A stretch of DNA of 60,528 bases, from the NCBI GenBank assembly GCA_036391995.1, contig DASVYU010000034.1, positions 1 through 60,528 of the forward strand, in the 5' to 3' direction. Positions 28,969 through 47,574 of the stretch are shown in pieces. Position numbers and translations under genes: made by a program. Below the pieces are notes generated by a model. It was not told the origin of the DNA. It searched no databases and was given only the letters and a program-made list of their open reading frames with translations. The DNA is from Patescibacteria group bacterium. GTDB lineage: Bacteria; Patescibacteriota; Minisyncoccia; Moranbacterales; GWC2-37-73. Each line of letters begins with the position of its first letter. The stretch's first letter is position 1.

Positions 28969-29007
28969 ATTATACAATAATAGTCGCATCACGCTAATGG
29001 ATGGATA

Positions 29008-29080
29008 TTGACTTTTGGCTCCGGATGGTGTATAATGGACATATGAAGATGAAAAAAACGGGTGAACAAAGCCCGTTTTT
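29008..29080 (+). promoter_or_regulatory. Promoter plus GGGUGA-loop leader hairpin (copy A)
   Basis: TTGACT, 17 bp, TATAAT, then AAAAACGGG-TGAACAAAG-CCCGTTTTT. Confidence 0.65.
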
Positions 29081-29157
29081 ATTATTTTCTTCAAACTACC
29101 AAGTTAATTAATTTAATTGCCAAGCTGTAGGGGCAGCTGGTACAAAAACAAAAAAAT

Positions 29158-29301
29158 ATGCAGCAGACACAACACAAGTGTCCTCATTGCACAAAACGTG
29201 CAAATGAAGAAAAGCAGCAGGAGGAAATGCACTTTGCAGTGCTTGTCTCCCTGGTCCCACTTCTAGTGTTCACGCTTTTCGGCCAAATGGGCCTCTTCTA
29301 A
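29158..29301 (+). CDS. 47-aa protein with CxxC and C-terminal TM (not in ORF track)
   Basis: MQQTQHKCPHCTKRANEEKQQEEMHFAVLVSLVPLLVFTLFGQMGLF*; has its own promoter and terminator. Confidence 0.75.
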   Translation: MQQTQHKCPHCTKRANEEKQQEEMHFAVLVSLVPLLVFTLFGQMGLF

Positions 29302-29309
29302 AAACAGAA

Positions 29310-29332
29310 TACCGCCGCGAGGCGGTTTTTGT
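29310..29332 (+). terminator. Intrinsic terminator
   Basis: ACCGCC-GCGA-GGCGGT followed by a T tract. Confidence 0.75.
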
Positions 29333-29418
29333 TTTGGTCAAATTAGAAGTTAAGCACCTAAAATGCGTATTAATAAAGTAATAATAAAGGATATTAAAAT
29401 AATGAAAGGAGGTGTTAT

Positions 29419-29697
29419 ATGATGTACGGTTACTATCCTCATATGGGATATTTAGGCTATGGCTTCGGTCTGGGCTGGATTTTCATGCTTATTTTCTGGA
29501 TATTGGTCATTTGGGCAATTATTGCGTTGGTAAGAGGTTTCAGTGGCGGGCACTGGCATGACAGACACTGCACGCATTGCGGGGAAGGCATGGAGGATTC
29601 GGCCATGAAAACTCTCAGGGAGCGCTATGCTAAAGGTGAGATCAATAAGGAGGAGTTTGAGTCCAAGAAGAAGGATCTGATGGGTAAGACTGAATAA
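29419..29697 (+). CDS. SHOCT-domain membrane protein
   Basis: Gly/Tyr-rich N-terminus, TM, then AMKTLRERYAKGEINKEEFE; SD AAGGAGG. Confidence 0.9.
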   Translation: MMYGYYPHMGYLGYGFGLGWIFMLIFWILVIWAIIALVRGFSGGHWHDRHCTHCGEGMEDSAMKTLRERYAKGEINKEEFESKKKDLMGKTE

Positions 29698-29757
29698 GTA
29701 ACGTGCCAAGCAACTCACAGGCTGCTATACTGAAAAAGGAAAAATTAACAAAAAACT

Positions 29758-29928
29758 ATGATTCCAAAATGGTTCGTTTGGTTTTGTGTCATTATTGGAT
29801 CCACAGCAGGCGCCTATTTGCCGATGCTGTGGGGGAGTGACGTCTTGTCCGTGTCCTCAGTTATATTCAGCGGTATAGGCGGGCTGCTTGGCATCTGGGT
29901 GGCTGTTAAGGTGGGAAATTTTATCTGA
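29758..29928 (+). CDS. 56-aa two-TM membrane protein (not in ORF track)
   Basis: MIPKWFVWFCVIIGSTAGAYLPMLWGSDVLSVSSVIFSGIGGLLGIWVAVKVGNFI*. Confidence 0.7.
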   Translation: MIPKWFVWFCVIIGSTAGAYLPMLWGSDVLSVSSVIFSGIGGLLGIWVAVKVGNFI

Positions 29929-30120
29929 CCGATCATTATATATTGTTATATTTGACAAGTAATGAAATTTTTCAAGAGCTGCATGTTTGAGAATCCGCAT
30001 TTCCTCTGAAATTCTTTGTTTCTTGTGTTGGGCGCACAAAGAATTTCAGTCAGAAAATGCAGGGTTAGAGTTCAGCTCGCAGAAAAATTTGCATTACTTG
30101 TCTTACAGCGCAGAGGCTTT

Positions 30121-31332
30121 ATGGCCAAAGAAAAAATAAAAACCCAATATGTTCCTTTGGCTGATCGTATGCGGCCGCAAAAACTGGCTGATTTTTTCGG
30201 GCAGCAGGAATTGGTTGGCGAAAAATCCTTTCTGCGCAAAGCTATTTTGGATGATTATGTGCCTTCGCTTATTTTGTGGGGACCTCCAGGCAGTGGCAAG
30301 ACGACTTTAGCTACGATTATTGCCAATGAGACTAATGCTGAATTTTTGCAGCTCAGCGGCGTTGTGAGCGGCAAAAAGGACTTACTTGCTGTCATCAAAG
30401 AAGCGGAAGAGAACAAAAAGCTTGGCAAGAAAACAATTCTTTTCATCGATGAAATCCATCGATGGAACAAGGCTCAGCAAGATGCGCTGCTGCCGCATGT
30501 CGAACACGGCACTGCTACTTTGATCGGAGCGACGACTGAGAATCCGAGCTTTGAAATCATCTCGCCATTGGTGTCGCGTTCGCGTGTTTTCGTGCTGAAT
30601 AAATTGGAAGCCGAAGATATTGAGAAAATATTAAGGCACGCTCTTGCTGACAAGGAAAACGGACTGGGCAAGAAAAAAATAAAAATTTCCAAGGAAATTA
30701 TTTCTGAAATAAGCAAATTGGCCAATGGCGATGCCAGGATGGCACTCAACACCTTGGAAGCAGCAGCGGAGCAGAGCTCCAATGTGACACATGATCTCAT
30801 TAAACAGGTGCTGCAAAAATCGCATCTTTATTACGATAAGACAGGTGAGGAGCATTACAACATAATCAGCGCATTGCACAAATCCATGCGCGGCGGTGAT
30901 GCTGATGCGGCTCTATATTGGCTCTCGCGTATGCTGGAAGGCGGGGAAGATCCTCTTTATGTAGCGCGCAGACTGCTGCGCTTTGCCAGCGAAGACGTGG
31001 GTTTAGCGGACAATTTCGCACTTGTGCTTGCAAACAGTGTTTTTGATTCTTGCCACAAGATCGGCATGCCCGAATGCTCTGTGCATCTGGCGCAGCTCGT
31101 TGTCTATCTTTCTCAGGCTAAGAAAAGCGTGAGCGCTTACTTGGCATACGGCAAAGCCAAAAAAGATGTGCAGGAATACGGCAACTTGCCGGTGCCTATG
31201 CATATAAGAAACGCGCCGACCAAGCTGATGGAAAAGCTGGGTTACGGCAAGGGCTACAAATACACGCCGCTTGAAGACAGCAGTGGGCAGGAATATTTTC
31301 CAGACGAGTTAGAAGGAAGAAAATATATTTAA
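30121..31332 (+). CDS. rarA: Replication-associated recombination protein A (MgsA/RarA); probable start 30121
   Basis: PLADRMRP; GPPGSGKTT; FIDEIHRWNKAQQD; SALHKSMRG; ASEDVG. Confidence 0.95.
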   Translation: MAKEKIKTQYVPLADRMRPQKLADFFGQQELVGEKSFLRKAILDDYVPSLILWGPPGSGKTTLATIIANETNAEFLQLSGVVSGKKDLLAVIKEAEENKKLGKKTILFIDEIHRWNKAQQDALLPHVEHGTATLIGATTENPSFEIISPLVSRSRVFVLNKLEAEDIEKILRHALADKENGLGKKKIKISKEIISEISKLANGDARMALNTLEAAAEQSSNVTHDLIKQVLQKSHLYYDKTGEEHYNIISALHKSMRGGDADAALYWLSRMLEGGEDPLYVARRLLRFASEDVGLADNFALVLANSVFDSCHKIGMPECSVHLAQLVVYLSQAKKSVSAYLAYGKAKKDVQEYGNLPVPMHIRNAPTKLMEKLGYGKGYKYTPLEDSSGQEYFPDELEGRKYI

Positions 31333-31350
31333 CTTGCAAATGTTTAGCTG

Positions 31351-33645
31351 TTAGATCTTTTTGCCTGGTCTTCTGCCCACAAAAGGATTGGTTAGCGGCC
31401 ATTCAATTTCCGGAAAAGCTTTCTTGAGGTGGTTTATTTGATGCCCTGTGTATATTTGCAAAGCAGAAGCACCCATATGCTGTTCAATGAAGTTTTTAAC
31501 GCCTTCTTCTCTTAGTTTTTTTAATATAATAAGCTTTGCATTGTCATAATCTCTTCGTTCCAAAAATTCACGTACGCCACCTATGTTTTTAAGTATCGTA
31601 TCCCTATAATTTCTTTCAGTAGCGGACAGATTGGACAATACGTCTTCCGGTGTTGTTTTTGGGACATTCCGCTTTCTAGAGCCGCTTTTGCTGTAGGGAA
31701 GATTGTCTGGCCAATTTATCTCTGGTAATGCTCCTTTGAGCATGTCTATCTGCTTGTTGAAAAGTCCACTGCCAGTTATTGACTTGAGGTGTTTATTTAC
31801 AAAGTTAGAAGAACCGAATTCCAGCAGATGTCCCATAATTATTTCACGCGCCTTCTCAAATTGACCATCGGCTATCAATTCTTTGGTTCCAGGAATATTT
31901 TCCAGAACCACGTTCCTGTATTTTTGACTCCAAGAAGCCTTTTTATCCTCAATGCTTGAAAATACAGTTCGGCCTCCTTTTTTTGCCAATTTTAATTCGC
32001 TTTCAGGCATCTCCGGCATGAGAGCTTTTATGATAGCTTCCTTATTGGGTAATTCCTGATCCTTTCCGTCGACTATATATTTGAGACCTATTTTATAAAA
32101 CTCTTCCGTATTGAATTGGCTGAACCACTCTGCTGCTGTAGGGTAGTCTTTTTCTTCGACAGCTTTTTCTATTTCGGGGTAATTACTGAAAATAGCATCG
32201 CGTATGTTGTCAATTTTTTCTTCTAATGGTCTATTTTTCCAATGATATTTTTTCATTCGCAATTCTTTGGCTGTAAATGAAAATTCGGGGAATATTTCCG
32301 CATAAAGCTCCTTCAAATTGCTGAAATGTCTTACGATCATTTGAATAATATTCGGAGGAAAATCGCTATGTTGCAGCTTGGCAATCAGCTCGTGGGCTTG
32401 TTCGCTGTTGCCGCTTTGCATGGCTCCGTCTATTTCAGGAAATTTTTTTAATATATATTTTTTAATTAAATCACAGAATTTTTCTTTATTTTGAAGCCAT
32501 TTTTCCATGGATACAATTTCTTCCGTATAATGCTGAAAAGGATCAGAGGCCATCAGATCAGTCAATCTTTGTTGCCAACTATCCGTACGCATAATACGAA
32601 CACAACCCATGTCTCTTAATGAACCTTTTGTTTCTCTGGCCAGTTCCTGCCAGTTTTCAGTTCGGGGCAGAACATACAGAGCATTGTTTGACCAGGGTGA
32701 AGCTATAATAACCAATTTTTCGAAAACATAAGCCCTGTATTCATTTTTATCCCCATTGCCTTCGCTTCCATTTCTGGAAATGAAGATTTTTTCTGGCTTT
32801 AAATTCTCAATAAAGGCTATTCTTTCTTCGTCAATGTAGGTTTCTCTGTGTCTTGTTTCTTTTGAACCATTTCCGTTCCTGGGCGATCCTTCGCCGGCAG
32901 GTAACATTTCCCATTGCAGGGTACTTATCTGTTGTTCTGTTCGTCCGCTTTTCAATAGTTCATTTCTTATTTTTTCAAGTTCCGGAAGATATCTTGCGTG
33001 CTGGGTGGTTTCTGAGAGCAGTTCCAGTGCTTTGTTTATGCGCAAAATATTGCGTTGCGCCATCCTGGCATCCAAGGCCTCGCTGGCATTGTTTAAAGGA
33101 TCGATATAAGCCTCGGCAAACTCTTGGTCGGCGCTCAAGAGATCTTGCAGTTTTTCTACAATATCCTGCTGTTTTTTTATTTCTGATTCTACGGATGATA
33201 ATGCTACGTCTAATTCTTTTGAGATCTCATAATATTGGCGAGATGAATCAGTCCCATATTGATTTTCATGAGGTCCTATTTTGGCGTACAGATCGGCAAT
33301 GTAGGAATCAAGATCATTGTGCAGATTTTCGGCAAAGGGTATGTCTTTAAGAAATTTTCCCGCAAGTCTGGTTTTGATGTAATTGTCTACGCCTCGTTCG
33401 AAATTTAAAGTTTTAATGCTTTCAAGTATTCTTTCTATTTTTTCTCTTATTTCGCTATAACGCTTTTCATATACTGCCGTGTTTTCCGTTGAGCTTATGT
33501 CTTGTTGAATAAGGAAATCCAAATTCTCCAATATTTTGGAGTTTTTTTCTTTTTCTTTGCCTAATTCTTTCACTTGTTCACGTTTTTGCTCAGTGGAATT
33601 TTCGAAAGTTGAAGACATAATTGATGGATTCATATTATGCTCCAA
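31351..33645 (-). CDS. Large hypothetical protein: coiled coil, central globular domain, four C-terminal repeats
   Basis: 764-aa ORF; about 90-aa repeats each ending L...[F/L/M]PE. Confidence 0.8.
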   Translation of the reverse strand: MEHNMNPSIMSSTFENSTEQKREQVKELGKEKEKNSKILENLDFLIQQDISSTENTAVYEKRYSEIREKIERILESIKTLNFERGVDNYIKTRLAGKFLKDIPFAENLHNDLDSYIADLYAKIGPHENQYGTDSSRQYYEISKELDVALSSVESEIKKQQDIVEKLQDLLSADQEFAEAYIDPLNNASEALDARMAQRNILRINKALELLSETTQHARYLPELEKIRNELLKSGRTEQQISTLQWEMLPAGEGSPRNGNGSKETRHRETYIDEERIAFIENLKPEKIFISRNGSEGNGDKNEYRAYVFEKLVIIASPWSNNALYVLPRTENWQELARETKGSLRDMGCVRIMRTDSWQQRLTDLMASDPFQHYTEEIVSMEKWLQNKEKFCDLIKKYILKKFPEIDGAMQSGNSEQAHELIAKLQHSDFPPNIIQMIVRHFSNLKELYAEIFPEFSFTAKELRMKKYHWKNRPLEEKIDNIRDAIFSNYPEIEKAVEEKDYPTAAEWFSQFNTEEFYKIGLKYIVDGKDQELPNKEAIIKALMPEMPESELKLAKKGGRTVFSSIEDKKASWSQKYRNVVLENIPGTKELIADGQFEKAREIIMGHLLEFGSSNFVNKHLKSITGSGLFNKQIDMLKGALPEINWPDNLPYSKSGSRKRNVPKTTPEDVLSNLSATERNYRDTILKNIGGVREFLERRDYDNAKLIILKKLREEGVKNFIEQHMGASALQIYTGHQINHLKKAFPEIEWPLTNPFVGRRPGKKI

Positions 33646-33747
33646 TTATAACAAAAATAAGTCATTTTATAAAATTGGTTAAGTTGAAATCTCCTTATGT
33701 TCTGCGCAGCAGAGTTCAAAGGCAAAAAACACTGGTTGCCGGAAGTT

Positions 33748-34179
33748 TTATTGTTGATTGTTTGCGCGCATGATTAGGTTTATGAGGAATTGAATGAAAG
33801 TGCCAAACCCTGCGACAGAAAGAAAGATGATGAACGGATATGCCAAAGGTGTCAGGAAAAAGAAGAATGAGATCAGCAATGCTGCCCATATGCCTGTGCA
33901 CCAAGGACAATCCAAAAGATCGTGCATGGATTTTTTGGGTCCGCTTTGAGTCTCAGAAAAATAATCGCGAATGAAATCAGCGACTGTGTCATAGACAAAT
34001 AGGCGCGTGAGACGGAATGTGGCCAAGGAAAGAAGTGAGAAGTTAAAAACGGAAATATGCGTCGGCAATTTTCCTAGAGCCCAGAGCGTGAAAACCATTG
34101 CCACGGAAATAATGGCGTATGCTGACATGGAAACGAAGTGCCAGAAATGCTGATTGTTTTTTATGTAAGTTTCATCCAT
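33748..34179 (-). CDS. DUF1360-family membrane protein
   Basis: LATFRLTRLFVYD; LLDCPWCTGIWAA. Confidence 0.88.
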   Translation of the reverse strand: MDETYIKNNQHFWHFVSMSAYAIISVAMVFTLWALGKLPTHISVFNFSLLSLATFRLTRLFVYDTVADFIRDYFSETQSGPKKSMHDLLDCPWCTGIWAALLISFFFFLTPLAYPFIIFLSVAGFGTFIQFLINLIMRANNQQ

Positions 34180-34252
34180 AGGTTTTAATTAGCTGTTCAG
34201 ATGTAATACTTTGCAATATTTTATAAATTACGTTTCCATGGTCTTGCCCCTC

Positions 34253-34331
34253 TTGATTTTTTCTCGGATTGGGTGTATAATGAAGTTAGCAAAATAGATA
34301 GAGCAAAAACGGGTGACTGCCCGTTTTTGCT
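34253..34331 (+). promoter_or_regulatory. Promoter plus GGGUGA-loop leader hairpin (copy B)
   Basis: TTGATT, 17 bp, TATAAT, then AGCAAAAACGGG-TGACTG-CCCGTTTTTGCT. Confidence 0.65.
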
Positions 34332-34346
34332 TTAATTAAGACAAAA

Positions 34347-35102
34347 ATGCCTAAAAAAACCCAAAACAAAAGAACAAAAAGCTCTCCCAAGAAGTCCAAA
34401 AAGACTTCTGTCTCCAAAAAGACTGCTGGAAAGGAGGTTGTCAAAAAGGCTGCCAAAAGGATTGCCAAAAAGACTACAAGAACCATGGCACTTGCTCGCA
34501 GGAAAAAGGAAGCCCTTTTCCATTTCGGAAATATTTCAAAGGAAAACTCACGCATCCTTGTTTTGGTCGTCATGATCATTTTTGTCTGTACGATGCTGAT
34601 CATTACCCAAATGACGCAGGCAAATGATTCAGGTGCTTCTGCAAATGTTCAGATTGTTCAGATCAAAAAAGAAACACCAATCCAAAAAGAGATCAAAGAG
34701 ATGGTTCAAGGTTATCCGATTCAGGATATGACGCCTTTCATTCTGCAGCAGGATCCGAAAGTCGCAGCTTTTCTTATTGCGATTGCCAAAAAGGAAAGTG
34801 CTTGGGGGCTCCATCATCCAGTACTTAATGGCCAAGATTGCTATAATTATTGGGGCTTCCGCTTGAAGAGCGATAAGATGGGTAGCGGAGGACACACTTG
34901 TTTTGATTCCCCTAAGGATGCTGTCGACACAGTGGCGGCTCGCCTCAATGAACTGGTGAAGGTTGAGAACATCGATTCACCTAAAGAAATGATCGTTTGG
35001 AAATGCGGCTATGGCTGCCAAGACAAGACCAAGACTGCTGAAGAGCAGAAATGGATCAAAGATGTTAATATCTATTACAGCACCCTGACGCAGAATTTAT
35101 AA
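34347..35102 (+). CDS. Membrane-anchored GH73/lysozyme-like protein, paralog 1
   Basis: Lys-rich N-terminus, TM, IAKKESAWG...YNYWGFR...CFDSP. Confidence 0.7.
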   Translation: MPKKTQNKRTKSSPKKSKKTSVSKKTAGKEVVKKAAKRIAKKTTRTMALARRKKEALFHFGNISKENSRILVLVVMIIFVCTMLIITQMTQANDSGASANVQIVQIKKETPIQKEIKEMVQGYPIQDMTPFILQQDPKVAAFLIAIAKKESAWGLHHPVLNGQDCYNYWGFRLKSDKMGSGGHTCFDSPKDAVDTVAARLNELVKVENIDSPKEMIVWKCGYGCQDKTKTAEEQKWIKDVNIYYSTLTQNL

Positions 35103-35123
35103 GAAATTCAATAGAGAAAAACC

Positions 35124-35150
35124 CGCCTGCGCTAAAGCTACGGCGAGGCG
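35124..35150. repeat. Small GC-rich palindrome (REP-like or terminator)
   Basis: CGCCT-GCGCTAAAGCTACGGCG-AGGCG. Confidence 0.45.
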
Positions 35151-35365
35151 AGTAAAAACAAAAACAAAAACAAAAACATGGTGCGCGCAAAATATCTGCG
35201 GCACCGTTTTTGTATCTAGAGCGAACGCTTGCGTGATCCCATGAATACTGATATATTTGCATGGCAATGCCAAGCCCGAAGGTTTGGTTTTTTGTTACAT
35301 TGTTGTTTCACAATTTGCTGTAAAAATATCAACGGAGTCAAAACCAGGAAAGGGAGGAAGGAAAG

Positions 35366-36847
35366 ATGACGGAAAAGTATGTGTTTAGTGAAGAGGCCGT
35401 GATGCTGCTTAATCAGAACATGACCTACAGGCATGTCCTTTCAGAGCGGTATCCATCGAAAGAGATGAAAGAGTGGTTTTCTGGCATGGCTATCATAAGC
35501 CGTTGGAGGCAGATGTGGATTGAAATTGCCAGGGGCCAGATGAATCTCGGCATAGAGAGGATTCGGCCTGAGATGCTCGAAGAGATGCAGCGCAATAAGA
35601 TGCTCATCGACTTCGTGCTAGCCAAAAAGGAAGAGGCCGCTCGCAAGCATGATGTGATGGCCCATGTGCACACCTTCGGCGCTATTTGCCCGACAGCTGC
35701 TCCGATCATTCATCTGGGCTGCACGTCATGCGAGATTACTGACAACTCTGAACTCATCGCGATGAGGGACGGCCTGCAGATGATCGCTGTCCAGCTGGCA
35801 CGTGCCATCAATTATCTCAAGAAGATAGCATTGCAATGGAAAGATCAGCCGACGCTAGCTTGGACTCATTTCCAATTCGCTCAGCCTACCACTGTCGGCA
35901 AACGGATTTGCATCTGGATCCAGGATCTCATGCTCGACCTCATGGAAATCGAAAGACTCATTGAAGAGCTGCGGTTCCGCGGCATCCAAGGGACGACCGG
36001 CACACAGGCTAGCTTCTTGGAACTCTTTGAAGGGGACCATGCCAAAGTGAAGGAATTGAACAGGATGGTCACAAAAGCTTGCGGTTTCAAAAAGTCCTTC
36101 ATCATCACAGGGCAGACATACACTCGAAAGCAGGATGCCATGATTCTTTCGCGCTTGGCTTCACTGGCGGCATCGCTGCACAAGATCGGCACGGACATCA
36201 GGTTGCTGGCCAACAAGATGGAGATGGAAGAGCCTAGTACTGAGGGCCAGGACGGCTCAAGTGCTATGCCGTTCAAGCGCAACCCCATGTTAAATGAGCG
36301 GTTGTGTTCCTTGGCTAGGTATCTCTGGAATCTTCTTCCGAATGCCAATGAGACGCATGCGCTGCAGTGGCTTGAAAGAACGTTGGATGACAGCGCTGGA
36401 AGGCGCATGTACATTTCAGAAGCGTTCCTTACGGCTGATGCGGCTTTGATCATCCTGCAGAAGATAGCTGGCGGCCTGATCGTTTATCCGAAAATGATCG
36501 AGCGCAACATGCAGGAACCCCTGCAATTTCTTGCTTCCGAAGAGATACTCATGGATGTAGTGAGAGCTGGCGGCAGCAGGCAGGAGGCGCATGAGAAGGT
36601 TAAACTGCACAGTTTGGCTGCGGGCAGGAGAATCAAGCAGGAAGGACTTCCTTGTGACCTGTTCGAACGCATCAGAAGCGATGATTTCTTTGCTCCCGTG
36701 CATGACAAGCTGGATTCTTTCCTCGACCCGAGTAGGTTTATCGGCAGAGCTCCTTTTCAAGTCGAGGAGTTCATTGAGGAAGAAATAAACCCGCTGCTTG
36801 CGAAGTATGAAGGTCAGCTCGAGAAGGAAGTGGTCATCAATGTCTGA
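35366..36847 (+). CDS. purB: Adenylosuccinate lyase
   Basis: HDVMAHV; IHLGCTS; THFQFAQPTTVGKR; GTTGT; signature SSAMPFKRNP. Confidence 0.93.
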   Translation: MTEKYVFSEEAVMLLNQNMTYRHVLSERYPSKEMKEWFSGMAIISRWRQMWIEIARGQMNLGIERIRPEMLEEMQRNKMLIDFVLAKKEEAARKHDVMAHVHTFGAICPTAAPIIHLGCTSCEITDNSELIAMRDGLQMIAVQLARAINYLKKIALQWKDQPTLAWTHFQFAQPTTVGKRICIWIQDLMLDLMEIERLIEELRFRGIQGTTGTQASFLELFEGDHAKVKELNRMVTKACGFKKSFIITGQTYTRKQDAMILSRLASLAASLHKIGTDIRLLANKMEMEEPSTEGQDGSSAMPFKRNPMLNERLCSLARYLWNLLPNANETHALQWLERTLDDSAGRRMYISEAFLTADAALIILQKIAGGLIVYPKMIERNMQEPLQFLASEEILMDVVRAGGSRQEAHEKVKLHSLAAGRRIKQEGLPCDLFERIRSDDFFAPVHDKLDSFLDPSRFIGRAPFQVEEFIEEEINPLLAKYEGQLEKEVVINV

Positions 36848-36879
36848 AAGGACTGTATGATTGAAAGGAGGCGATTGAT

Positions 36880-37050
36880 TTGAGTCTCAAAAATGCACGT
36901 GAGGATGGCTTTTCCGGACAGGATAAATGTGAATTCTGCGGGGATTGGTTTGTTAGAAATTCCGTGACGTGCGACGATGAATTCAAGAAGCATTTGATGA
37001 AATGCCTCTTGAGACCGAAGGATTCCATGGGTTGGCATGATGATTGCTGA
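36880..37050 (+). CDS. 56-aa putative C2HC zinc-finger protein (TTG start; not in ORF track)
   Basis: SD AAGGAGG 8 nt upstream; CEFC-x17-H-x3-C; followed by a 12-bp terminator stem. Confidence 0.7.
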   Translation: MSLKNAREDGFSGQDKCEFCGDWFVRNSVTCDDEFKKHLMKCLLRPKDSMGWHDDC

Positions 37051-37090
37051 CTCTGCTGTTGCTAGCTGCTCGGCGAGTGGCTATAAAAGC

Positions 37091-37127
37091 AAGCACTACC
37101 ACATGTAAATGTGTGGTAGTGCTTTTT
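37091..37127 (+). terminator. Intrinsic terminator
   Basis: AAGCACTACCAC / GTGGTAGTGCTT followed by Ts. Confidence 0.75.
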
Positions 37128-37257
37128 CTTACTCTTTTTAAAATTTTTTTAATGTGCTATGATGAAAAACGCCTGTCCTGTTAAATAATTTTGCTCTGCA
37201 AAATTGCCCGCAGGGCATTTAACAGGATAAATAACTAATAAACAAAAAAGCAAAAAT

Positions 37258-37629
37258 ATGCAGAACATCCAGGAAATTTTTAATCAGATCAGGGAGATGA
37301 AGAAGGAGCAGAAGGATCTTAAGGAAATGTATAAGGACGCGCTGGCGCAAGCTGACAAATACGATGAGATCGTGGAGGAAATCAAGGTGCTGCGCGAGAA
37401 GAAAAAAGAGATCGAGACCCGCATCCAAGGGGAACTCGGCAGAGCCTGGGAGAAACTGGATGATCTCAAGCGGGAAGTGGACATGCAGAAAGAAATGATG
37501 AATGATATTGCGCTGACGACGCTCATGAAAGGGGAGACTGTGGAAGTGAAAGACGAATTCGACAACGCCTATGAGCCGACTTGGAAAGTCAATTTCAAGA
37601 AGACAAACATGGGCAAGACGACTGAATAA
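37258..37629 (+). CDS. Coiled-coil hypothetical protein (123 aa)
   Basis: Charged helical ORF with a short beta-rich C-terminus. Confidence 0.8.
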   Translation: MQNIQEIFNQIREMKKEQKDLKEMYKDALAQADKYDEIVEEIKVLREKKKEIETRIQGELGRAWEKLDDLKREVDMQKEMMNDIALTTLMKGETVEVKDEFDNAYEPTWKVNFKKTNMGKTTE

Positions 37630-37647
37630 CATTTTTTCAGCTCACTT

Positions 37648-37747
37648 AAAGGGCCACATGAAAACTTTTTGCTTGCCTTTCCCTCGCCAATAAATGATGG
37701 GACATGGCATCGGCCGGACGGCGCAAAAAGCATTCATGTGGTCCTTT
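37648..37747. repeat. 100-bp long-stem intergenic element
   Basis: AAAGGGCCACATGAA / TTCATGTGGTCCTTT, then CTTTTTGC / GCAAAAAG, with a 50-nt interior. Confidence 0.65.
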
Positions 37748-37807
37748 TGCATAGATGGTAAGGTTTTGTCTTGCTTAAATCACAAAATTATAGGATAATT
37801 CCAATCT

Positions 37808-38767
37808 ATGGAAAATTTCTGGCAACAACTGAAAAAACCTTTTTTTGTGCTGGCGCCTATGGCGGATGTGACTGATTTTGCCCAGCGGCAGATGCTGGCC
37901 AAATATGGCAAGCCGGATGTGACCTACACGGAATTCGTCAGTGCTGATGGTCTTATGCATGAAAAGGGTAGGCAAGCTCTGCTTAAAGATCTCAAATTTG
38001 CCGAAAATGAGCGTCCTATCGTGGCGCAGATTTTCGGTGCTGATCCTGAAAATATCAAAAAGGCCGCAGCTCTGATAAGAGAGCTCGGTTTTGATGGCGT
38101 GGACATTAATATGGGTTGCCCTGACAAAGCTGTCATTAAGCAAGGAGCGGGCAGTGCGTTGATTAAAAATCCCAAATTGGCACGTGAGATTATTCGTGCC
38201 GCCAAAGAGGGAGCAGGGGACATGCCTGTCAGTGTGAAGACAAGAATTGGTTTCAATAAGAATGAGATGGAAACATGGCTGCCTGAAATTTTGGCGGAAA
38301 AACCAGTAGCATTGACTGTGCATCTGCGCACTAAAAAAGAAATGTCAGAAGTGGATGCGCATTGGGAGCTTATGCCTAGGATCGTGGAAATGGCCAGAAA
38401 GGAAGGCGTTATCATTATTGGCAATGGCGATGTGAAAAATCTTGCTGATGGTTTGCAAAAAGCTCAGGAATCAGGAGCTGACGGCATCATGGTGGGCAGG
38501 GGGGTATTCGGCAACCCTTGGTTTTTCAATAAACAGGAAGATGTCAGCGGTAAGACATTGCCAGAAAAATTGGCTGCCATGCTTGAGCATACCAAGTTTT
38601 TTGAAAAAGAAATTTCTTCTAAAAAAATCAAAGGTTTCCATGTCATGAAAAAGCATTTCAAGGCTTATATTAGCGGCTTTGACGGCGCCAAAGAAATGCG
38701 CGCCGCTTTCATGGAAGCGGAAAATGCAGAAGAAGTGGAAAGACTTGTGAAGAAATATTTGTCCTGA
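37808..38767 (+). CDS. tRNA-dihydrouridine synthase
   Basis: LAPMADVTD; TEFVS; QIFG; DINMGCP; VSVKTRIG; GNGD; IMVGRG. Confidence 0.93.
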   Translation: MENFWQQLKKPFFVLAPMADVTDFAQRQMLAKYGKPDVTYTEFVSADGLMHEKGRQALLKDLKFAENERPIVAQIFGADPENIKKAAALIRELGFDGVDINMGCPDKAVIKQGAGSALIKNPKLAREIIRAAKEGAGDMPVSVKTRIGFNKNEMETWLPEILAEKPVALTVHLRTKKEMSEVDAHWELMPRIVEMARKEGVIIIGNGDVKNLADGLQKAQESGADGIMVGRGVFGNPWFFNKQEDVSGKTLPEKLAAMLEHTKFFEKEISSKKIKGFHVMKKHFKAYISGFDGAKEMRAAFMEAENAEEVERLVKKYLS

Positions 38768-38806
38768 TGTTGTATAATAAAGTAGGTAACTTTTAAAGAA
38801 ACAAAA

Positions 38807-39169
38807 ATGAAAATTCTTATCCATTGGCTTCTTTCAGCTTTAGCGGTTGTGATCGCAGCATACCTGTTGCCGCAGGGAATATTTGTGAAAAGTTTTTTTG
38901 TGGCGTTGGTGGTCGCGGTGGTGCTGGGATTTCTCAATGCTGTCATCCGGCCGATTCTTATCGTGCTGACACTGCCGATTGAGATCCTGACGCTCGGGCT
39001 TTTCACTTTTGTCATAAATGCTGGATTAGTTATGCTGGCAAGCGCTGTCGTGCCTGGTTTCCAAGTGGCCAGCTTCTGGTGGGCGTTGGCTTTCAGCTTG
39101 ATTCTTTCAATTATCAACGCGGTGTTGCATCATTTTGAACCGCATGGAAACAGCGAGTCGGAAAAGTAG
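38807..39169 (+). CDS. YvlD/DUF360 'phage holin family' membrane protein
   Basis: LGFLNAVIRPILIVLTLPIEILTLGLFTFVINA. Confidence 0.9.
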   Translation: MKILIHWLLSALAVVIAAYLLPQGIFVKSFFVALVVAVVLGFLNAVIRPILIVLTLPIEILTLGLFTFVINAGLVMLASAVVPGFQVASFWWALAFSLILSIINAVLHHFEPHGNSESEK

Positions 39170-39188
39170 AAATTAAAAATGTAGATCA

Positions 39189-39394
39189 AAAAAGCAGGAG
39201 ATGATTTTTTGTTTTCCTAGTCTTCTTCGGACTGGACTACAAAAATGAATTCTAAACAAAAAACAGAGGTTTCATTTTTGTTCGCCTAGACTCCTTCGGA
39301 CCGGACTCCAAAAAAATCATCCCTTGCTTTTTGCGAAAGCATTCCTTTAGTCTTCTTCTGACAGGACTCCAAAAATAATCCCCTTGCTGTTTTT
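39189..39394. repeat. Three degenerate 30-bp direct repeats nested in inverted repeats
   Basis: Units at 39216, 39285 and 39346 (consensus CCTAGTCTTCTTCGGACxGGACTCCAAAAA); outer and inner inverted repeats. Confidence 0.75.
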
Positions 39395-39417
39395 AAGTGA
39401 AGCTTTATTGTTGTTTC

Positions 39418-40389
39418 TTACTTCTGCAGCTTATCATTCTCGATCTCATTGAGAATCTTCTTTATCTTCTCGATGCTATCCCAATCGTGGATGGAAATGA
39501 CCTGAACGTCGCCGCTTATCTTCTTGGCTTGCTTTATTTTCTCTTTCAATTCTTTTTCGCTTACCATGTCGCTACGGGAAATGATGATGTATTCAGGTTT
39601 TTCCAGTAGCTCCTGGTTGTATGAGTCCAGTTCTTCGCGAATAGTTTCATAGTCTTGCAGGATGTTCTCACTGTCAGCGGCTAGAAAATGGAAAAGTATT
39701 TTTGTGCGTTCAACGTGCTTGAGGAATTTGATGCCCAAGCCTTTGCCCTCGGAAGCGCCTTCGATGAGTCCTGGAATATCAGCCAGAATCAAGCCATAAT
39801 ATGCACCCAGATTGGGTTCCAAGGTGGTGAATTGGTAGTTGGCCACTTTGGCGCTGGCGTTGGTGAGCTCATTGAGCAGTGATGATTTTCCCACGTTGGG
39901 CAGACCAACGAAACCGATGTCTGCAATCATCTTGAGCTCCAATCTTATCTCGAACTCTTCGCCGGGTTTGCCTTCCTCAAATTCGGTAGGAGTGGTATTT
40001 TTGGATGAGCGGAAAAGGAAATTGCCGCGTCCACCGCGTCCACCTTTGGCGGCCACTATTTGCTGGCCATTCTTGGTTATTTCGCTGTCAACGCCAGTCT
40101 TTAGATTGTGGATTACAGTGCCGACTGGCACTTTCAAAACAAGGTCTTGTCCATCGGGTCCGTCGCAGAATTGGCCTTTGCCGTCGCGTCCATTTTGAGC
40201 GCCTAGCTGCTTTTTGTGGCGGAATTGACCCAGGGCTCCCAGGTCGTCGACACCCTCAAAAATGACGCTGCCGCCTCTGCCTCCGCTGCCTCCGGCTGGT
40301 CCAAGGCTCATTAGGTTCTTATTGAAAGCAGCAGAGCCTCTGCCGCCATGACCGGCTGTTATTTGGATTTTGACATCATCTATAAGCAT
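39418..40389 (-). CDS. obgE: GTPase ObgE/CgtA (probable start MLIDDVKI, 40389)
   Basis: Gly-rich Obg fold (GGSGGRGG); GLPNVGKS; YQFTTLEP; DIPG. Confidence 0.95.
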   Translation of the reverse strand: MLIDDVKIQITAGHGGRGSAAFNKNLMSLGPAGGSGGRGGSVIFEGVDDLGALGQFRHKKQLGAQNGRDGKGQFCDGPDGQDLVLKVPVGTVIHNLKTGVDSEITKNGQQIVAAKGGRGGRGNFLFRSSKNTTPTEFEEGKPGEEFEIRLELKMIADIGFVGLPNVGKSSLLNELTNASAKVANYQFTTLEPNLGAYYGLILADIPGLIEGASEGKGLGIKFLKHVERTKILFHFLAADSENILQDYETIREELDSYNQELLEKPEYIIISRSDMVSEKELKEKIKQAKKISGDVQVISIHDWDSIEKIKKILNEIENDKLQK

Positions 40390-40442
40390 AGGTGTGAAGC
40401 ATAACACAAAGGAGGGAAAATATCAAGAGGTCAGGGTTTTCA

Positions 40443-40490
40443 GAGGTTCAACCTTGGGCAAAGCTAAGGCGATTCAAAAGGTTGAACCTC
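40443..40490. repeat. REP-like inverted pair
   Basis: GAGGTTCAACCTT ... AAGGTTGAACCTC, a perfect 13-bp IR; each arm is self-palindromic. Confidence 0.7.
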
Positions 40491-40525
40491 GGCATAGCAG
40501 AACTATGGACATCAACTAAAATTTG

Positions 40526-40580
40526 TGCTATACTTAAGCTATAGAAACAGAGAGACGGGTGAAAGCCACGTCTTTTTGTC
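40526..40580 (+). promoter_or_regulatory. Extended -10 promoter plus GGGUGA-loop leader hairpin (copy C)
   Basis: TGc-TATACT, then AGACGGG-TGAAAG-CCACGTCT-TTTT. Confidence 0.6.
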
Positions 40581-40586
40581 TTTTTT

Positions 40587-40625
40587 ACCCCGTTAAATTC
40601 GCTTTGCGACATATTTAACTGGGGT
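40587..40625. repeat. REP-like hairpin
   Basis: ACCCCGTTAAAT-TCGC-TTT-GCGA-CAT-ATTTAACTGGGGT. Confidence 0.6.
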
Positions 40626-40655
40626 TAAGCCAAATAATAAATAAAAAACAAAAGC

Positions 40656-41240
40656 ATGAGTGAGCATAGATTTATTCCATCTATTGACGCTGGACCCGAA
40701 GAGATAAAAAAGCAGAAAGAAATAATAAACAGAGAGGGGAGTGAAGGCTCACTGGCTGTTCAAATTGGAAATGAAAGTGAGCAGGAGAAGCTTTATTTTG
40801 AGCGTAGAAATGAGGGCAAATATTTGAATTTGGAATCTTATATACGCGCGAATAAGATCATAATTGCTTCAGCTGAGGAAATCGGTACTGAGCCGTTTAT
40901 GAAAAATTTGCCGGCAGGAACAGGAGTTCTCTTGAATGGTAATTTTCTTACATGTGAGGATATAAACAAAGGTCCGAAGGAATATCAGGGGCATACTGTG
41001 ATATATGTGGATGGTCAAAAGAACCTCTCGCTCGCTTACATTAAAGAGCAAGGCATTGCATCCTTGCAGTCTAATAATCTTTCGAGAAGGAAAGAGGTAG
41101 TTGAGGAATTGAAATCGCTCAATTTCATTTTGCAAGATTATGATTCTATAGTGAAGCCTTTCGCCCATGAGGTTATCAAATATGTGAAAAGCAATAAGGA
41201 GGCGCAGGAAAAGGAAAAGAGGGACTCATTTGATTTCTAA
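40656..41240 (+). CDS. Hypothetical protein (194 aa)
   Basis: Long ORF with its own promoter; no recognisable motif. Confidence 0.75.
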   Translation: MSEHRFIPSIDAGPEEIKKQKEIINREGSEGSLAVQIGNESEQEKLYFERRNEGKYLNLESYIRANKIIIASAEEIGTEPFMKNLPAGTGVLLNGNFLTCEDINKGPKEYQGHTVIYVDGQKNLSLAYIKEQGIASLQSNNLSRRKEVVEELKSLNFILQDYDSIVKPFAHEVIKYVKSNKEAQEKEKRDSFDF

Positions 41241-41310
41241 GTGAGTTTTATGATAAGCACGCTAGGCGTGCTTTTTGCATTTTATTCGGTTATGTGTAAA
41301 GATAGGCTTT

Positions 41311-42585
41311 ATGAAAAAAATTATATCTGAACAATTCGATGTGCTAGTTATCGGCGGGGGAGCTGCTGGCCTTATGGCGGCTGGCAGAGCAGCTGAAAAG
41401 GGCGCTCGCGTGGCCTTGGTTGAGAAGAACGACCGCTATGGGATCAAGGTTCTCATGACGGGAAACGGCCGCTGCAACGTGACACAGGACGCTGACAATA
41501 TGGTGGAATTTTCCAAAGCCTACAAGAATGGCCTGCCCGAAGGCCGCGGCCAGGGTAGATTTTTGCTGTCTGCTTTCAATGCTTTTGCTCCATCCGATAT
41601 GCGGGCCTTTTTGGCAAAGCGCGGCGTGGCAACCAAGGTGGAGAAAAATGGCAAAGTTTATCCAGCCAGTGACCAAAGCAAAGACATCGTGAAAACGCTC
41701 TATCAATATTGCCGTGAGAACATGGTTACTTTTTTCAATACTGAAGATGTGCTTGATGTGGTGAGGAATGGAAATGCTATTGATAGAATAATCACCAAGA
41801 AAAAAGAGATCTCCGCTGAGAAATATATCTTGGCTACAGGCGGAAAATCCTATCCGCATACAGGTTCCAATGGGGAAGGATTCAAATGGGCGCACAAGCT
41901 TGGCCACACGATCATTGAACCTCAGCCGTGCCTGGTGCCAATCAAGGTTTCGGAAGCTTGGATTGAAAAAGCGCAAGGTATTTCTGCACACAATGTAACG
42001 CTGAATGTTTTCCAGAATAATAAGAAAATCGCCAGCGAAAATGGGGACATCATGTTAGCGCACTATGGCCTGAGTGGTCCGGCCGCGCTTAATATAAGCA
42101 GAGAAATAAGAAAGATTTTGAGTAATGGAGGGGTTAAGCTTGAAATAGATCTTAAGCCAGAACTTTCCTTTGAAAAACTGGATGAGATTATCCGCAAAGA
42201 TTTCGAATCAAACAGCAACAAGAATCTGGGCAATTGCCTCAAGGATTTCGCCAGCCCCAAAATGCTGGAGCTTATCATTGAATTGTCTGGAATCGATGAA
42301 CAATTGCACGCCAGCAGAATAAGCAAGGAGGACCGCAGGAAAATCGCGCATCTTTTCAAGAACATGACACTGACCGTTCAGGAGCTTTTCGGCTTCGAGA
42401 AAGCCATGGTGACGAGTGGAGGAATTTCCACTAAGGAAATAGACTCAAGAACAATGAAATCCAAATTGATTGAAAACCTTTTCTTTGCTGGTGAGGTTAT
42501 TGATGCCGATGGTCCGACTGGCGGATATAATCTTCAAATGTGCTGGTCTACAGGCTTTCTGGCTGGCCAGAGCGCTGCCGAATAA
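41311..42585 (+). CDS. HI0933/YhiN(BaiN)-family flavoprotein; probable start 41311
   Basis: GGGAAG; KVLMTGNGRCNVT; ATGGKSYP; VTSGG; GEVIDADGPTGGYNLQ. Confidence 0.93.
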   Translation: MKKIISEQFDVLVIGGGAAGLMAAGRAAEKGARVALVEKNDRYGIKVLMTGNGRCNVTQDADNMVEFSKAYKNGLPEGRGQGRFLLSAFNAFAPSDMRAFLAKRGVATKVEKNGKVYPASDQSKDIVKTLYQYCRENMVTFFNTEDVLDVVRNGNAIDRIITKKKEISAEKYILATGGKSYPHTGSNGEGFKWAHKLGHTIIEPQPCLVPIKVSEAWIEKAQGISAHNVTLNVFQNNKKIASENGDIMLAHYGLSGPAALNISREIRKILSNGGVKLEIDLKPELSFEKLDEIIRKDFESNSNKNLGNCLKDFASPKMLELIIELSGIDEQLHASRISKEDRRKIAHLFKNMTLTVQELFGFEKAMVTSGGISTKEIDSRTMKSKLIENLFFAGEVIDADGPTGGYNLQMCWSTGFLAGQSAAE

Positions 42586-42636
42586 ACATCTTTTGATATT
42601 TGTAGTATGTTACGTAACGATTAACGTAACAAAACT

Positions 42637-43045
42637 ATGCTTAACTTTTGGGCCGTGCTTGTTGCTGCCATCATCACTATGGTTATTGGAGGCCTTTGGT
42701 ATTCCACTGCATTGTTTGGAAAAATGTGGATGGAACATTCCGGCATGACCAGGATGAAAATAGAACAGGCCAAAAAAGAAGGCATGGGTAGCGCCTACGT
42801 GACGCTTTTTATTGGTGCCATCATCATGGCTTATATGTTGGCATATGTTATTCAAGTCGCTGCTGCAGTTACTGTCAGTCAGGGATTACTGGTGGCTTCC
42901 GGTTTATGGCTGGGTTTTGTTGCGACAACTTTTTTGGGCAGCGTGCTGTTTGAAAAAAAAGCCTTTGGGATATTATTGGATACACACATTGCATTATTTG
43001 GTGGTTCTTTTGATAGACAGCATAATCTTGATCCTTTGGAAATAA
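42637..43045 (+). pseudogene. DUF1761-family membrane protein frameshifted at an A8 run (42953-42960)
   Basis: N-part (IGGLWYS...FGKMWM...WLGFVA) runs to FEKK. The family-like C-terminus PLGYYWIHTLHYLVVLLIDSIILILWK* is in another frame; deleting one A restores a 135-aa ORF. Confidence 0.75.
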
Positions 43046-43241
43046 TAAAAATGTGCTCGATAGAGCCCAATTGTCTGCTTTATTGGATCCAGCCCAATAT
43101 CTATGTTAATGATTGACAAAGCAAGAGAATTGGCGTATACTGGGCTTAGTTGTAAGTGTCTTACTGGTTTTCGCCTTTTGTGCAGAAAATTAAGAGAAGA
43201 GGTCGCCTTACAAAGTTAACAAGTTCACAAAAGCGAAAACT

Positions 43242-43535
43242 ATGGCAACAAAGCTATACGTGGGAGGTCTTCCGTATTCAACTACGGATGCTGAGCTCCA
43301 AGAGCACTTCTCACAAGCAGGAAATGTGACTTCAGCCATCATTATCATGGATAAGATGACTGGCCGCTCGAAAGGTTTCGGATTCGTTGAGATGTCTTCT
43401 GATGAAGAAGCTCAGAAAGCGATCGAAATGTTCGACAAGAAGGAATTCGGCGGACGCACATTGACTGTCAACGAAGCTCGCCCAATGGAAGCTCGTCCTC
43501 CAAGACGTGATTTCAACGGCGGAAATAGATACTAG
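43242..43535 (+). CDS. RRM RNA-binding protein
   Basis: RNP2 LYVGGL; RNP1 KGFGFVEM; TVNEARP. Confidence 0.96.
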   Translation: MATKLYVGGLPYSTTDAELQEHFSQAGNVTSAIIIMDKMTGRSKGFGFVEMSSDEEAQKAIEMFDKKEFGGRTLTVNEARPMEARPPRRDFNGGNRY

Positions 43536-43556
43536 TCTCAGACTGATTTCTATAAC

Positions 43557-43585
43557 AAAAAACACTCCCTTGGGGAGTGTTTTTT
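43557..43585 (+). terminator. Intrinsic terminator
   Basis: AAAAAACACTCC / GGAGTGTTTTTT. Confidence 0.8.
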
Positions 43586-43608
43586 GTGTGGACAAATGCT
43601 CGAAAAAA

Positions 43609-43660
43609 TGCTAAAATAGAAGCAGATATTTGAAAAGACAGGGTGAGCTCTGTCTTTTTG
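43609..43660 (+). promoter_or_regulatory. Extended -10 promoter plus GGGUGA-loop leader hairpin (copy D)
   Basis: TGc-TAAAAT, then AAAAGACAGGG-TGAG-CTCTGTCTTTT. Confidence 0.6.
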
Positions 43661-43686
43661 TCTTTTAAATCGATTAAAACAAAAAT

Positions 43687-43968
43687 ATGATCAGAGTAGA
43701 CGGGCACACATTTTGGCGCGGAGGCGAGAAAGTCGGTTTCATTGAGGACAATCACATCAAGAATTATGATGGCGACAGGGTGGGATATTATATCGACGAG
43801 CATATTTACAACAGCCGCGATCATAAAGTCGCCTATCTTCTGGATGATTACATCTGTTTCACTGATTCTTCCAAGAAGATCAGGATTGAAGACAATAACA
43901 AAGATGTTTATGGCGGCAGCTTGAACAATGTTCAAAGAGCAGCTGTCAGAGTTTTGCTGGGGGAATAA
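43687..43968 (+). CDS. Small beta-repeat hypothetical protein (93 aa)
   Basis: Repeated G.KVG[FY]I...I / KVAYL hairpin units. Confidence 0.75.
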   Translation: MIRVDGHTFWRGGEKVGFIEDNHIKNYDGDRVGYYIDEHIYNSRDHKVAYLLDDYICFTDSSKKIRIEDNNKDVYGGSLNNVQRAAVRVLLGE

Positions 43969-43990
43969 TATCTTCAAATCTCTTAGAGTT

Positions 43991-47412: not shown

Positions 47413-47574
47413 TTGACAAGATGGACGTTTTTTGCTATATTTTGATGTAGCACTGAATGTATTGCTGCCCAGAAGGCAGCGTTTTAATTTGTTTATAATC
47501 GTAGACCTCATCTGTCCTGAGTACAGGACAGCTTCTCCTTGGAAAGGAGAAGAAAATAAGGACTAAAACTTTTT
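47413..47574 (+). promoter_or_regulatory. typA promoter and structured 5' leader
   Basis: TTGACA, 17 bp, TATATT; hairpins at 47464-80, 47512-31 and 47532-52. Confidence 0.55.

Follow-up and report, generated by a model that had tools for sequence, protein, structure and literature searches.

Introduction

Attenuators built on intrinsic terminators are known from many 5' leaders, where the protein-dependent examples include BglG/SacY-RAT, PyrR, TRAP and the ANTAR targets, and premature terminators have also come to light through Term-seq. Other hairpins at or near the 5' end stabilise the transcript, as in the E. coli ompA leader and in B. subtilis aprE and ermC, or belong to the nut boxB of lambda and P22, to rrn boxB-boxA or to the LoaP-bound leader hairpin. 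Here, we describe a leader hairpin marked by an invariant GGGUG sequence, which occurs four times (sites 1 to 4) in a contig of 60,528 nt (DASVYU010000034.1 of assembly GCA_036391995.1; hereafter the window, meaning the whole stretch analysed). The window has a GC content of 43% and comes from a Moranbacteria-like genome of the Candidate Phyla Radiation (CPR, Patescibacteria), whose Obg protein is 73-80% identical to the Obg of Moranbacteria metagenome-assembled genomes. Each hairpin lies between a promoter and one of the genes here called p47, p251, p194 and p93, and the comparisons reported below mark it as an RNA element that acts in cis and is conserved in the 5' leaders of a limited set of CPR-specific genes.

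Similarly to the known leader attenuators, the element has a GC-rich stem and a U tract between promoter and start codon, belongs to a defined gene set and offers a sequence-specific feature that a protein could read. Unlike them, it shows no rival antiterminator structure, its conserved sequence lies inside the 5' arm and apex of the terminator itself, and the whole element fits within about 50 nt of the start; moreover, the known protein-binding consensus sequences are absent, and termination is predicted here. With the 5' stabilisers it shares a stable hairpin at or near the 5' end, here a predicted one, and probably strong promoters, but the known stabilisers need neither a specific sequence nor a U tract. 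The present element, by contrast, conserves both GGGUG and a fixed order of A's 5' and U's 3', and in some copies 8-11 nt would stay unpaired. The nut, rrn and LoaP sites resemble it in that a small GC stem carries a GA-rich tetra- or pentaloop close to the transcript start, and a boxA-like UGCUUUA follows the hairpins of p251 and of sites 3 and 4 (type B, see below) as in nut and rrn boxB-boxA, a short likeness; unlike those systems, the p47 leaders have no boxA-like part, the transcription units are short and a terminator-type U run stands behind the hairpin. A preliminary description of the window had also, as a speculation, compared the loop to K-loop-type protein sites, which like K-turns are bound by proteins of the L7Ae family. 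The likeness goes no further than a UGA beside a G-C stem, and the analogy is not supported: there is no second conserved GA for tandem sheared G-A pairs, loops of 4 nt occur, and three of the 19 copies retrieved without a sequence pattern have G or U in place of the A of UGA.

Results

Four leader hairpins follow near-consensus promoters

The four hairpins, which the preliminary description had reported as sense-strand structures with a U tract behind good -10 boxes, were verified on the + strand, each followed by a T run. In all of them GGGTGA (GGGUGA in the RNA) stands at the junction of 5' arm and loop, starting at 29060, 34311, 40557 and 43641, that is 23, 29, 22 and 23 nt past the -10 box at sites 1, 2, 3 and 4, respectively (range 22-29 nt), and each -10 box has a -35 hexamer at a spacing of 17 nt. 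The U tracts lie at about 29081-29092, 34329-34340, 40574-40586 and 43657-43668 (+). All four hairpins are on the sense strand of the next gene. Since the upstream neighbours of sites 1-3 are divergent, and the gene for an RRM protein upstream of site 4 ends in its own terminator (43558-43590), a gene-end terminator is excluded at all four sites.

The promoter of site 1 (29008-29036, +) combines TTGACT, the 17-nt spacer and GGTG abutting TATAAT (-10 at 29031-29036) and matches the consensus at 11 of 12 positions; this type, TTGAC(T/A)...GGGTGTATAAT, is also kept 5' of the p47 orthologues. Its hairpin (29045-29089, +) has the core AAAAACGGG-UGAACAAAG-CCCGUUUUU at 29054-29080 with GGGUGA at 29060-29065, and pairing of the A tract with the U tract lengthens the stem as far as the predicted 5' end. 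This hairpin folds with -20.1 kcal/mol (z = -6.0), whereas the antisense strand, over the 50-nt alignment stretch, reaches a weaker -13.7 kcal/mol. At site 2 the promoter (34253-34281, +; TTGATT, 17-nt spacer, GGTG plus TATAAT, -10 at 34276-34281) is kept in all p251 orthologues and precedes a 16-bp hairpin (34299-34334, +), whose core AGCAAAAACGGG-UGACUG-CCCGUUUUUGCU spans 34302-34331 with GGGTGA at 34311-34316; it folds with -23.1 kcal/mol (z = -6.5) and scores 57.6 bits with the covariance model described below, and its end lies 12 nt from the p251 start codon.

Site 3 has a promoter with TGGACA, a 17-nt spacer and TG-n-TATACT (40506-40534, +; -10 at 40529-40534), of which the orthologue in locus L002 reads GTGCTATAAT. 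The hairpin behind it (40547-40579, +) consists of AGACGGG-UGAAAG-CC(A)CGUCU at 40553-40573, with a bulged A at 40568 and GGGTGA at 40557-40562, on a lower stem in which G-U pairs form with GUCUUUUUGU; the sense fold reaches -18.0 kcal/mol, the antisense fold -7.8 over a 33-nt and -10.6 over a 50-nt stretch. The site 4 promoter (43589-43617, +; TGGACA, 17-nt spacer, TG-n-TAAAAT, -10 at 43612-43617) stands 3' of the RRM gene terminator, and its hairpin (43624-43663, +) has the stem UGAAAAGACAGGG-UGAG-CUCUGUCUUUUUG at 43631-43660 with GGGTGA at 43641-43646 (-14.9 kcal/mol sense vs. -9.8 antisense). Taken together, the four RNA folds span -14.9 to -23.1 kcal/mol, with z from -3.5 to -6.5 against shuffled sequences.

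The leaders had been described as unrelated to one another, which we revise: sites 1 and 2 have the GGTGTATAAT promoter and AAAACGGGTGA..CCCGTTTTT in common, and sites 3 and 4 share AGAC.GGGTGA..GTCTTTTTGTCTTTT, forming a second subtype (type B, AGAC.GGGUGA...GUCUUUUUGUCUUUU). That the leaders carry a shared, non-random motif was nevertheless borne out. The pattern GGGTGA-N1-9-C-N0-3-GTYTTT, composed post hoc with the sites already known, matches four times vs. 0.15 expected by chance, whereas GGGTGA alone is not enriched in the window (25 copies on both strands); ACGGGTG is, within the window, confined to these leaders. A covariance model, whose construction had been proposed, recovered these four sites and nothing else in the window.

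Strong promoters of this lineage carry a G-rich extension abutting the -10 box, either (G)GGTG-TATAAT or GGAG-TATAAT (29027-29036, 34272-34281 and 58495-58506 in the window, and in the compared loci), and GGGTG thus appears twice, in the promoter and again 20-30 nt later in the hairpin. We considered a sigma-dependent pause element on account of this repetition and rejected it, as the downstream copy has no -10-like continuation beyond site 1. A Shine-Dalgarno (SD) mimic or STAB-SD was likewise rejected: GGUGA is complementary to the anti-SD sequence but is buried in the stem, and its distance to the ATG is 36-99 nt.

The promoter-hairpin module is conserved across CPR loci

We retrieved 13 orthologous loci of p251 and p47 through Obg or through p251/p47 protein homologues, so that the motif itself was not used. 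The promoter-plus-hairpin module was present in all ten p251 orthologues (L001-L005, L009, L151, L153, L155 and L157) and in all three p47 orthologues (L159-L161). In addition, a metagenome scan with the pattern TGTATAAT..ACGGGTGA..CGTYTTT gave 48 loci, 27 of them CPR-type (31-49% GC), and in nearly all of these 27 the next gene belongs to the p47 or p251 family and is preceded by a complete TTGAC(T/A)-N-GGGTGTATAAT promoter. The module is thus kept in front of two gene families in many CPR genomes. The other scan loci were mostly an unrelated tandem repeat of termite-gut contigs (L103, L110, L113, L116, L118-L120, L122-L127, L133, L134, L137, L138, L141 and L145), in which a unit of about 40-50 nt with TTAACACATTGCGGACGGGTGACGCAGATTTGCGTTTTT is repeated head to tail and then followed by a conserved AACACGGTGAAACTCGGTACATCTGCAAG... 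segment.

Type B orthologues were found in L002 at 9871 (-), corresponding to site 3, in L155 at 16870 (+), corresponding to site 4 and again behind an RRM gene, and in L104 at 5546; these three leaders precede E/K-rich proteins that differ between the genomes. The covariance model gave no further members in 760 kb of CPR loci and none in the more distant L010-L028. A DNA uptake sequence or a dispersed repeat was also considered and rejected, on account of this absence of additional matches and because ACGGGTG is, in the window, restricted to these leaders.

The hairpin stands at a narrowly conserved distance behind the -10 box, 18-23 nt in the p47 leaders and 27-33 nt in most p251 leaders; in L160 this distance is 55 nt. 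Many p251 leaders have no more than 4-13 nt between hairpin and ATG (12 nt at site 2), and the p251 mRNA must therefore be transcribed through the hairpin. All 40 copies are sense-oriented and stand directly 5' of a gene.

The hairpin covaries and carries an invariant 5' arm

The 40 distinct copies were aligned to a covariance model built on a stated hairpin structure; we relied on this alignment because MAFFT misaligned the 3' arms, and MAFFT with RNAalifold gave merely three pairs. In the 40-copy alignment 86% of the cells form pairs, vs. 78% after shuffling, and both partners have changed in 12 of the 15 pairs. The observed values were not reached in any of 500 shuffles, and slid registers gave at most 64%. 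The covariation asserted in the preliminary description is thus real, and by this comparative measure the hairpin structure is under selection. In 39 of the 40 copies it is the sense strand that folds more stably (mean -18.1 vs. -12.1 kcal/mol for the antisense strand), because the many G-U pairs put their G on the 5' arm; as judged from these predicted folds, the element acts as RNA and in a strand-specific manner.

GGGUG is invariant, also in the 19 copies that were retrieved without a sequence pattern, among which the following base is A in 16 and G or U in three. The loop is therefore not always UGA...G, as had been claimed. Relatives also show UGG.., UGU.. and GANN tetraloops with a U-G or U-A closing pair; among the loops are UGAG, GAAA, GACU and UGGUUG, and loop length varies from 4 to 12 nt. 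The constant part is instead the 5' arm, (A/G)AC-GGGUG, while the 3' partner of GGGUG varies (CCC, CC-A, CUC, UCC or CCU). The polarity is constant as well: A's always stand 5' and U's 3'. Of the G's in the lower part of the 5' arm, 60 pair with U vs. 37 with C; since G-U pairs outnumber G-C pairs there, the U-rich 3' arm is kept even at the expense of stability.

Two familiar identities were tried on this apex and rejected. A GNRA tetraloop family would fit the UGAAAG apex of about ten of the 40 copies (a possible GAAA loop closed by U-G), the others having GAAC, GACC, GACU, GAAU or loops of 6-12 nt. The preQ1-I and guanidine-II riboswitch hairpins gave no Rfam signal and have no matching loop or tail. 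At the gathering threshold the only match of Rfam 15 in the window was a tRNA, and with E up to 10 the region 28900-43800 gave sub-threshold chance matches only; the comparison with Rfam proposed earlier thus returned no family, and in the literature searched we found no description of the element. It is a new RNA motif of a familiar kind, that of leader hairpins and attenuators, and its unusual features are the lack of a switch structure, the conserved 5' arm and the extreme closeness to the promoter.

Leader hairpins are built like terminators but are specific to leaders

The hairpins have the build by which an intrinsic terminator is recognised, namely a GC-rich stem of at least 5 bp, a loop of 3-9 nt and, directly behind, at least five U's. 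Compared with 70 gene-end hairpins of the same genomes, the leader hairpins have a median GC-core energy of -7.5 vs. -9.7 kcal/mol, 4.4 vs. 4.6 GC pairs and 7.4 vs. 7.1 T's in the 9-nt tail, and in all three respects they lie within the gene-end range.

A survey of 312 kb of non-redundant Moranbacteria-like DNA separated the two groups by position: a -10 box was found upstream of 15 of 17 terminator-like hairpins with a GGGTG apex vs. 29 of 159 others (Fisher p = 1e-8), in agreement with the expectation that the motif is commoner in 5' leaders than at gene ends. One of the two exceptions is a chance match within coding sequence, and the other a true member whose promoter is 55 nt away. The gene-end terminators of these genomes lacked the GGGTG apex throughout, GGGTGA was not found in any clear gene-end terminator of the window, and none of 74 ACGGGTGA..CCCGTTTT hairpins in viral contigs had this promoter.

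The window also holds promoters followed by hairpins without GGGUG. The BipA/TypA leader (47413-47553) has hairpins at 47463-47481, 47512-47531 and 47533-47553, and the leader of the gene at 57680 (57591-57657) has a 12-bp hairpin at 57627-57657, followed by UUUUAAUUUUG.

Genes downstream of the hairpins and their surroundings

As anticipated, the motif precedes small, membrane or uncharacterised proteins, and no Pfam or NCBIfam family matches p47, p251, p194 or p93 at its curated cut-off. The p47 gene (29158-29301, +), with its own terminator at 29311-29326, encodes a 47-aa CxxC protein of the small, C-terminally anchored membrane type (...TLFGQMGLF). It is rarely called by gene finders, and we found five database entries. 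The public call for one orthologue (P0122, L159 3260-3487) starts at the GUG of the hairpin and gives 75 aa vs. about 47; this longer version looks like a mis-annotation that the leader element has induced. Behind the hairpin, the p47 leader (29081-29157 in the window; also L114, L132, L112, L139 and L161) has a conserved AU-rich UAAUUAAUUUAA box, as well as a conserved second small hairpin (29121-29141 in the window) and a conserved GGGGG run 12-20 nt before the ATG.

The p251 gene (34347-35102, +) encodes 251 aa; the protein is Lys-rich at its N-terminus, has a single transmembrane helix and ends in a conserved domain. Its family is CPR-restricted and comprises 1753 homologue clusters, all hypothetical and mostly from Moranbacteria; p251 and the homologues compared (P0002-P0120) have invariant Cys, His and Trp residues and an invariant ...AIAKKES.WG... 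motif. In the AlphaFold model the mean predicted local distance difference test score is 75, and above 90 over most of the conserved domain. Weak Foldseek matches (E = 0.02-1) were to FlgJ/GH73-type peptidoglycan hydrolases, g-type lysozyme and lytic transglycosylases, and the ...AIAKKES.WG... motif resembles a catalytic motif of the latter. Thus, p251 is possibly a membrane-anchored lysozyme-like protein, a putative cell-wall hydrolase, in that fold match and motif fit, although they are no proof of function.

The p194 gene (40656-41240, +; terminator 41255-41273) encodes a charged protein of no assigned family. Its leader carries at 40587-40625 an extra palindrome, CCCCGTTAAATTCGCTTTGCGACATATTTAACTGGGG, which is single-copy in the window and absent from the orthologous L002 leader; the similar CCTGTTAAATTCGCC...ATTTAACAGGG occurs in L001 near 13570-13620, and the palindrome may be a small mobile insertion. 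The p93 gene (43687-43968, +) encodes a weakly beta-flower-like protein and is followed by an overlapping open reading frame of 269 aa (43928-44737).

The RRM-protein gene upstream of p93 (43113-43535; protein 43242-43535) comes with a consensus promoter of its own, TTGACA/TATACT, and with about 100 nt of leader, and it is the only window gene found, as an exact 232-nt contig, in the matching soil metatranscriptome. Several genes of the window appear to have no leader or almost none, with the ATG 6-14 nt past a consensus TATAAT (23543-23557 (+), 28974-28960 (-), 51070-51090 (+) and 58495-58515 (+)). Among them is the polysaccharide deacetylase gene, for which the ATG at 28962 (- strand) rather than the TTG at 29094 is the likely true start. 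Many other genes have A-rich, SD-less upstream regions.

Discussion

We tentatively propose, at somewhat less than an even chance, that the element is a promoter-proximal attenuator of the intrinsic-terminator type, whose GGGUG apex is read by a factor in trans or which responds to the nucleoside triphosphate (NTP) supply. A strong sigma-70-type promoter (TTGAC-N17-(G)GGTG-TATAAT) would fire, and from about +5 to +50 the nascent RNA would fold into a hairpin of A tract, GC clamp and U tract, with (A/G)AC-GGGUG(A) as its 5' arm. Because architecture and strength match those of the gene-end intrinsic terminators of the organism, part of the polymerases would most likely stop at the hairpin and release an RNA of about 45-55 nt, while the remaining polymerases would read through into the gene and yield mRNAs that bear a stable 5' stem-loop. 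The read-through fraction would be set in trans by a protein recognising the GGGUG apex, or possibly by NTP supply, so that a small envelope-related regulon would be co-regulated. Control in trans is suggested by two observations, namely that the leader holds no antiterminator partner and that GGGUG is kept whatever its pairing; on inspection, without a dedicated search, the upstream leader was purine-rich and held nothing complementary to GGGUG in the copies examined.

Several points weigh against this attenuator. Many of the copies are evolutionarily related, the independent leader families being perhaps three to five, and the counts for polarity and sequence conservation therefore represent few independent lineages; moreover, 27 of the 40 aligned copies came from a pattern that fixes ACGGGTGA. 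The copies counted are those of the loci and contigs surveyed. The GC core has merely 4-5 GC pairs, and termination may therefore be weak or absent. The only metatranscriptome matching this genome, from soil, covers the RRM coding region alone. The hairpin lies very near the predicted 5' end (overhang of 2-12 nt), a closeness that a 5' stabiliser needs and an attenuator does not. Finally, no candidate trans-acting factor was found. The RRM protein had been suggested as a partner, but its sole link to the motif is adjacency, which holds for the window and L155 and fails in L153, and this partner is not supported.

The main rival, which we think unlikely although it deserves attention, is that the hairpin is a 5'-terminal mRNA stabiliser, which would sequester the 5' end and shield highly expressed mRNAs from 5'-end-dependent RNases with no termination at all; the U-rich stretch would then be merely a pairing partner, or an unstructured, SD-independent ribosome landing site. 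The stem of such a stabiliser would begin within about 4-5 nt of the 5' end. In its favour are the predicted folds (with +1 set 7 nt past the -10 box), in which the extended stems start 1-3 nt from the 5' end at sites 1 and 4, an overhang of 0-2 nt, and about 7 nt from it at site 3, an overhang of about 6 nt, as well as the tightly kept distance from -10 box to hairpin, the near-consensus and hence probably strong promoters, and the many genes here without SD sequence or leader. On the other hand, p251 leaders would have a single-stranded 5' end of 8-11 nt (about 11 at site 2, 8 in L143 and L151), and the hairpin of L160 is 55 nt from its -10 box. A stabiliser also requires neither an invariant GGGUG nor the fixed A-5'/U-3' polarity, and the preference for G-U over G-C in the lower stem speaks against selection for stability alone.

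The attenuator can be taken a step further, to a GGGUG hairpin that a trans-acting factor dedicated to it would recognise as RNA; this factor, an antiterminator or attenuation protein specific to CPR or else a Nus-type complex, would switch a regulon of CPR-specific envelope genes. We regard this stronger version as doubtful; its regulon would include the membrane-anchored lysozyme-like protein, the conserved 47-aa membrane protein and the E/K-rich proteins.

It is improbable that the leaders are nut-like loading sites, in which the hairpin would act as boxB and UUUUUG(U)CUUU(A) as boxA to recruit Nus factors or a NusG paralogue for processive antitermination. Many apexes do read CGGG-U-GAAA/GANN-G-CCCG, reminiscent of lambda/P22 boxB, whose loop is closed by a U-A pair, and behind the p251 and type B hairpins stand UGCUUUA, UGCUCUUU (L129) and UGUCUUUUAAA (site 4), which show a likeness to the rrn boxA UGCUCUUUAACAA, a single-stranded element bound by NusB-S10. 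The missing boxA-like stretch of the p47 leaders argues against such sites, and where a boxA-like stretch is present it is mostly base-paired in the extended stem. Moreover, there would be little to antiterminate, because the transcription units are short, mostly monocistronic and closed by their own terminators.

We give a similarly low chance to a stand-alone small RNA gene, whose product would be the hairpin RNA of about 45-55 nt and whose downstream gene would be a read-through passenger. The complete unit from promoter to terminator, with its conserved promoter, would suit such a gene, but the RNA would consist solely of the hairpin, and every copy is sense-oriented directly 5' of a gene and linked to the same two gene families across genomes; the 4-13 nt between hairpin and ATG before p251 leave a second promoter no space.

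An inverted repeat immediately past a promoter could also be a DNA operator, a palindromic repressor site at about +10 to +50, and MarR/HTH_34 genes do stand divergent from p251 in L151, L153, L155 and L157. Such genes are missing from the window and from the p47 loci, though, and the arms are asymmetric, the 5' arm being invariant and the 3' arm variable; G-U pairs become A-C mismatches on the other strand and the loop length ranges over 4-12 nt, which makes an operator very unlikely. A leader peptide has a still slighter chance and was rejected as a trait common to all leaders. In this explanation, the GUG within GGGUGA would start a tiny upstream open reading frame (uORF; M-x-A-R-F-C-F-x-stop in p251 leaders) for translational control: the frame of the p251 leaders reads V(K/N/T)(A)RFCF, and about nine copies have their stop at codon 9-10, the site 4 uORF stop overlaps the p93 start (AUGA), and one gene call for p47, P0122, begins at this GUG. 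However, the peptide sequence is dictated by the CCCGUUUUUGCUUU arm, the p47 leaders vary in frame and peptide (L160 has its stop at codon 2), no SD sequence is present, and the GUG is buried in a stem of -15 to -23 kcal/mol. Chance, or ordinary terminators that fortuitously follow -10-like hexamers, can practically be dismissed: in DNA as AT-rich as this, 18% of all terminator-like hairpins do have a loose -10-like hexamer in front, but the four matches vs. 0.15 expected, the divergent upstream genes and the conservation of promoter, spacing and hairpin across dozens of genomes already contradict it.

CPR bacteria, with their tiny genomes, encode few regulators that can be recognised, and few of them have been cultured; to our knowledge their gene regulation is almost unexplored. 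A conserved and easily recognised motif that tags a small lineage-specific gene set, including a widespread family of putative hydrolases and an often-missed small membrane protein, is thus a handle on the definition of a regulon. It also helps to annotate transcription starts and small genes, and the GGGUG hairpin RNA provides a concrete bait for an RNA-binding regulator. Even if the element is only a leader terminator or a stabiliser, it would still be a useful new RNA family for annotation. Should a dedicated factor indeed read it, this would be, as far as we found, the first regulon-level riboregulatory system described in Patescibacteria, possibly tied to their host dependence.

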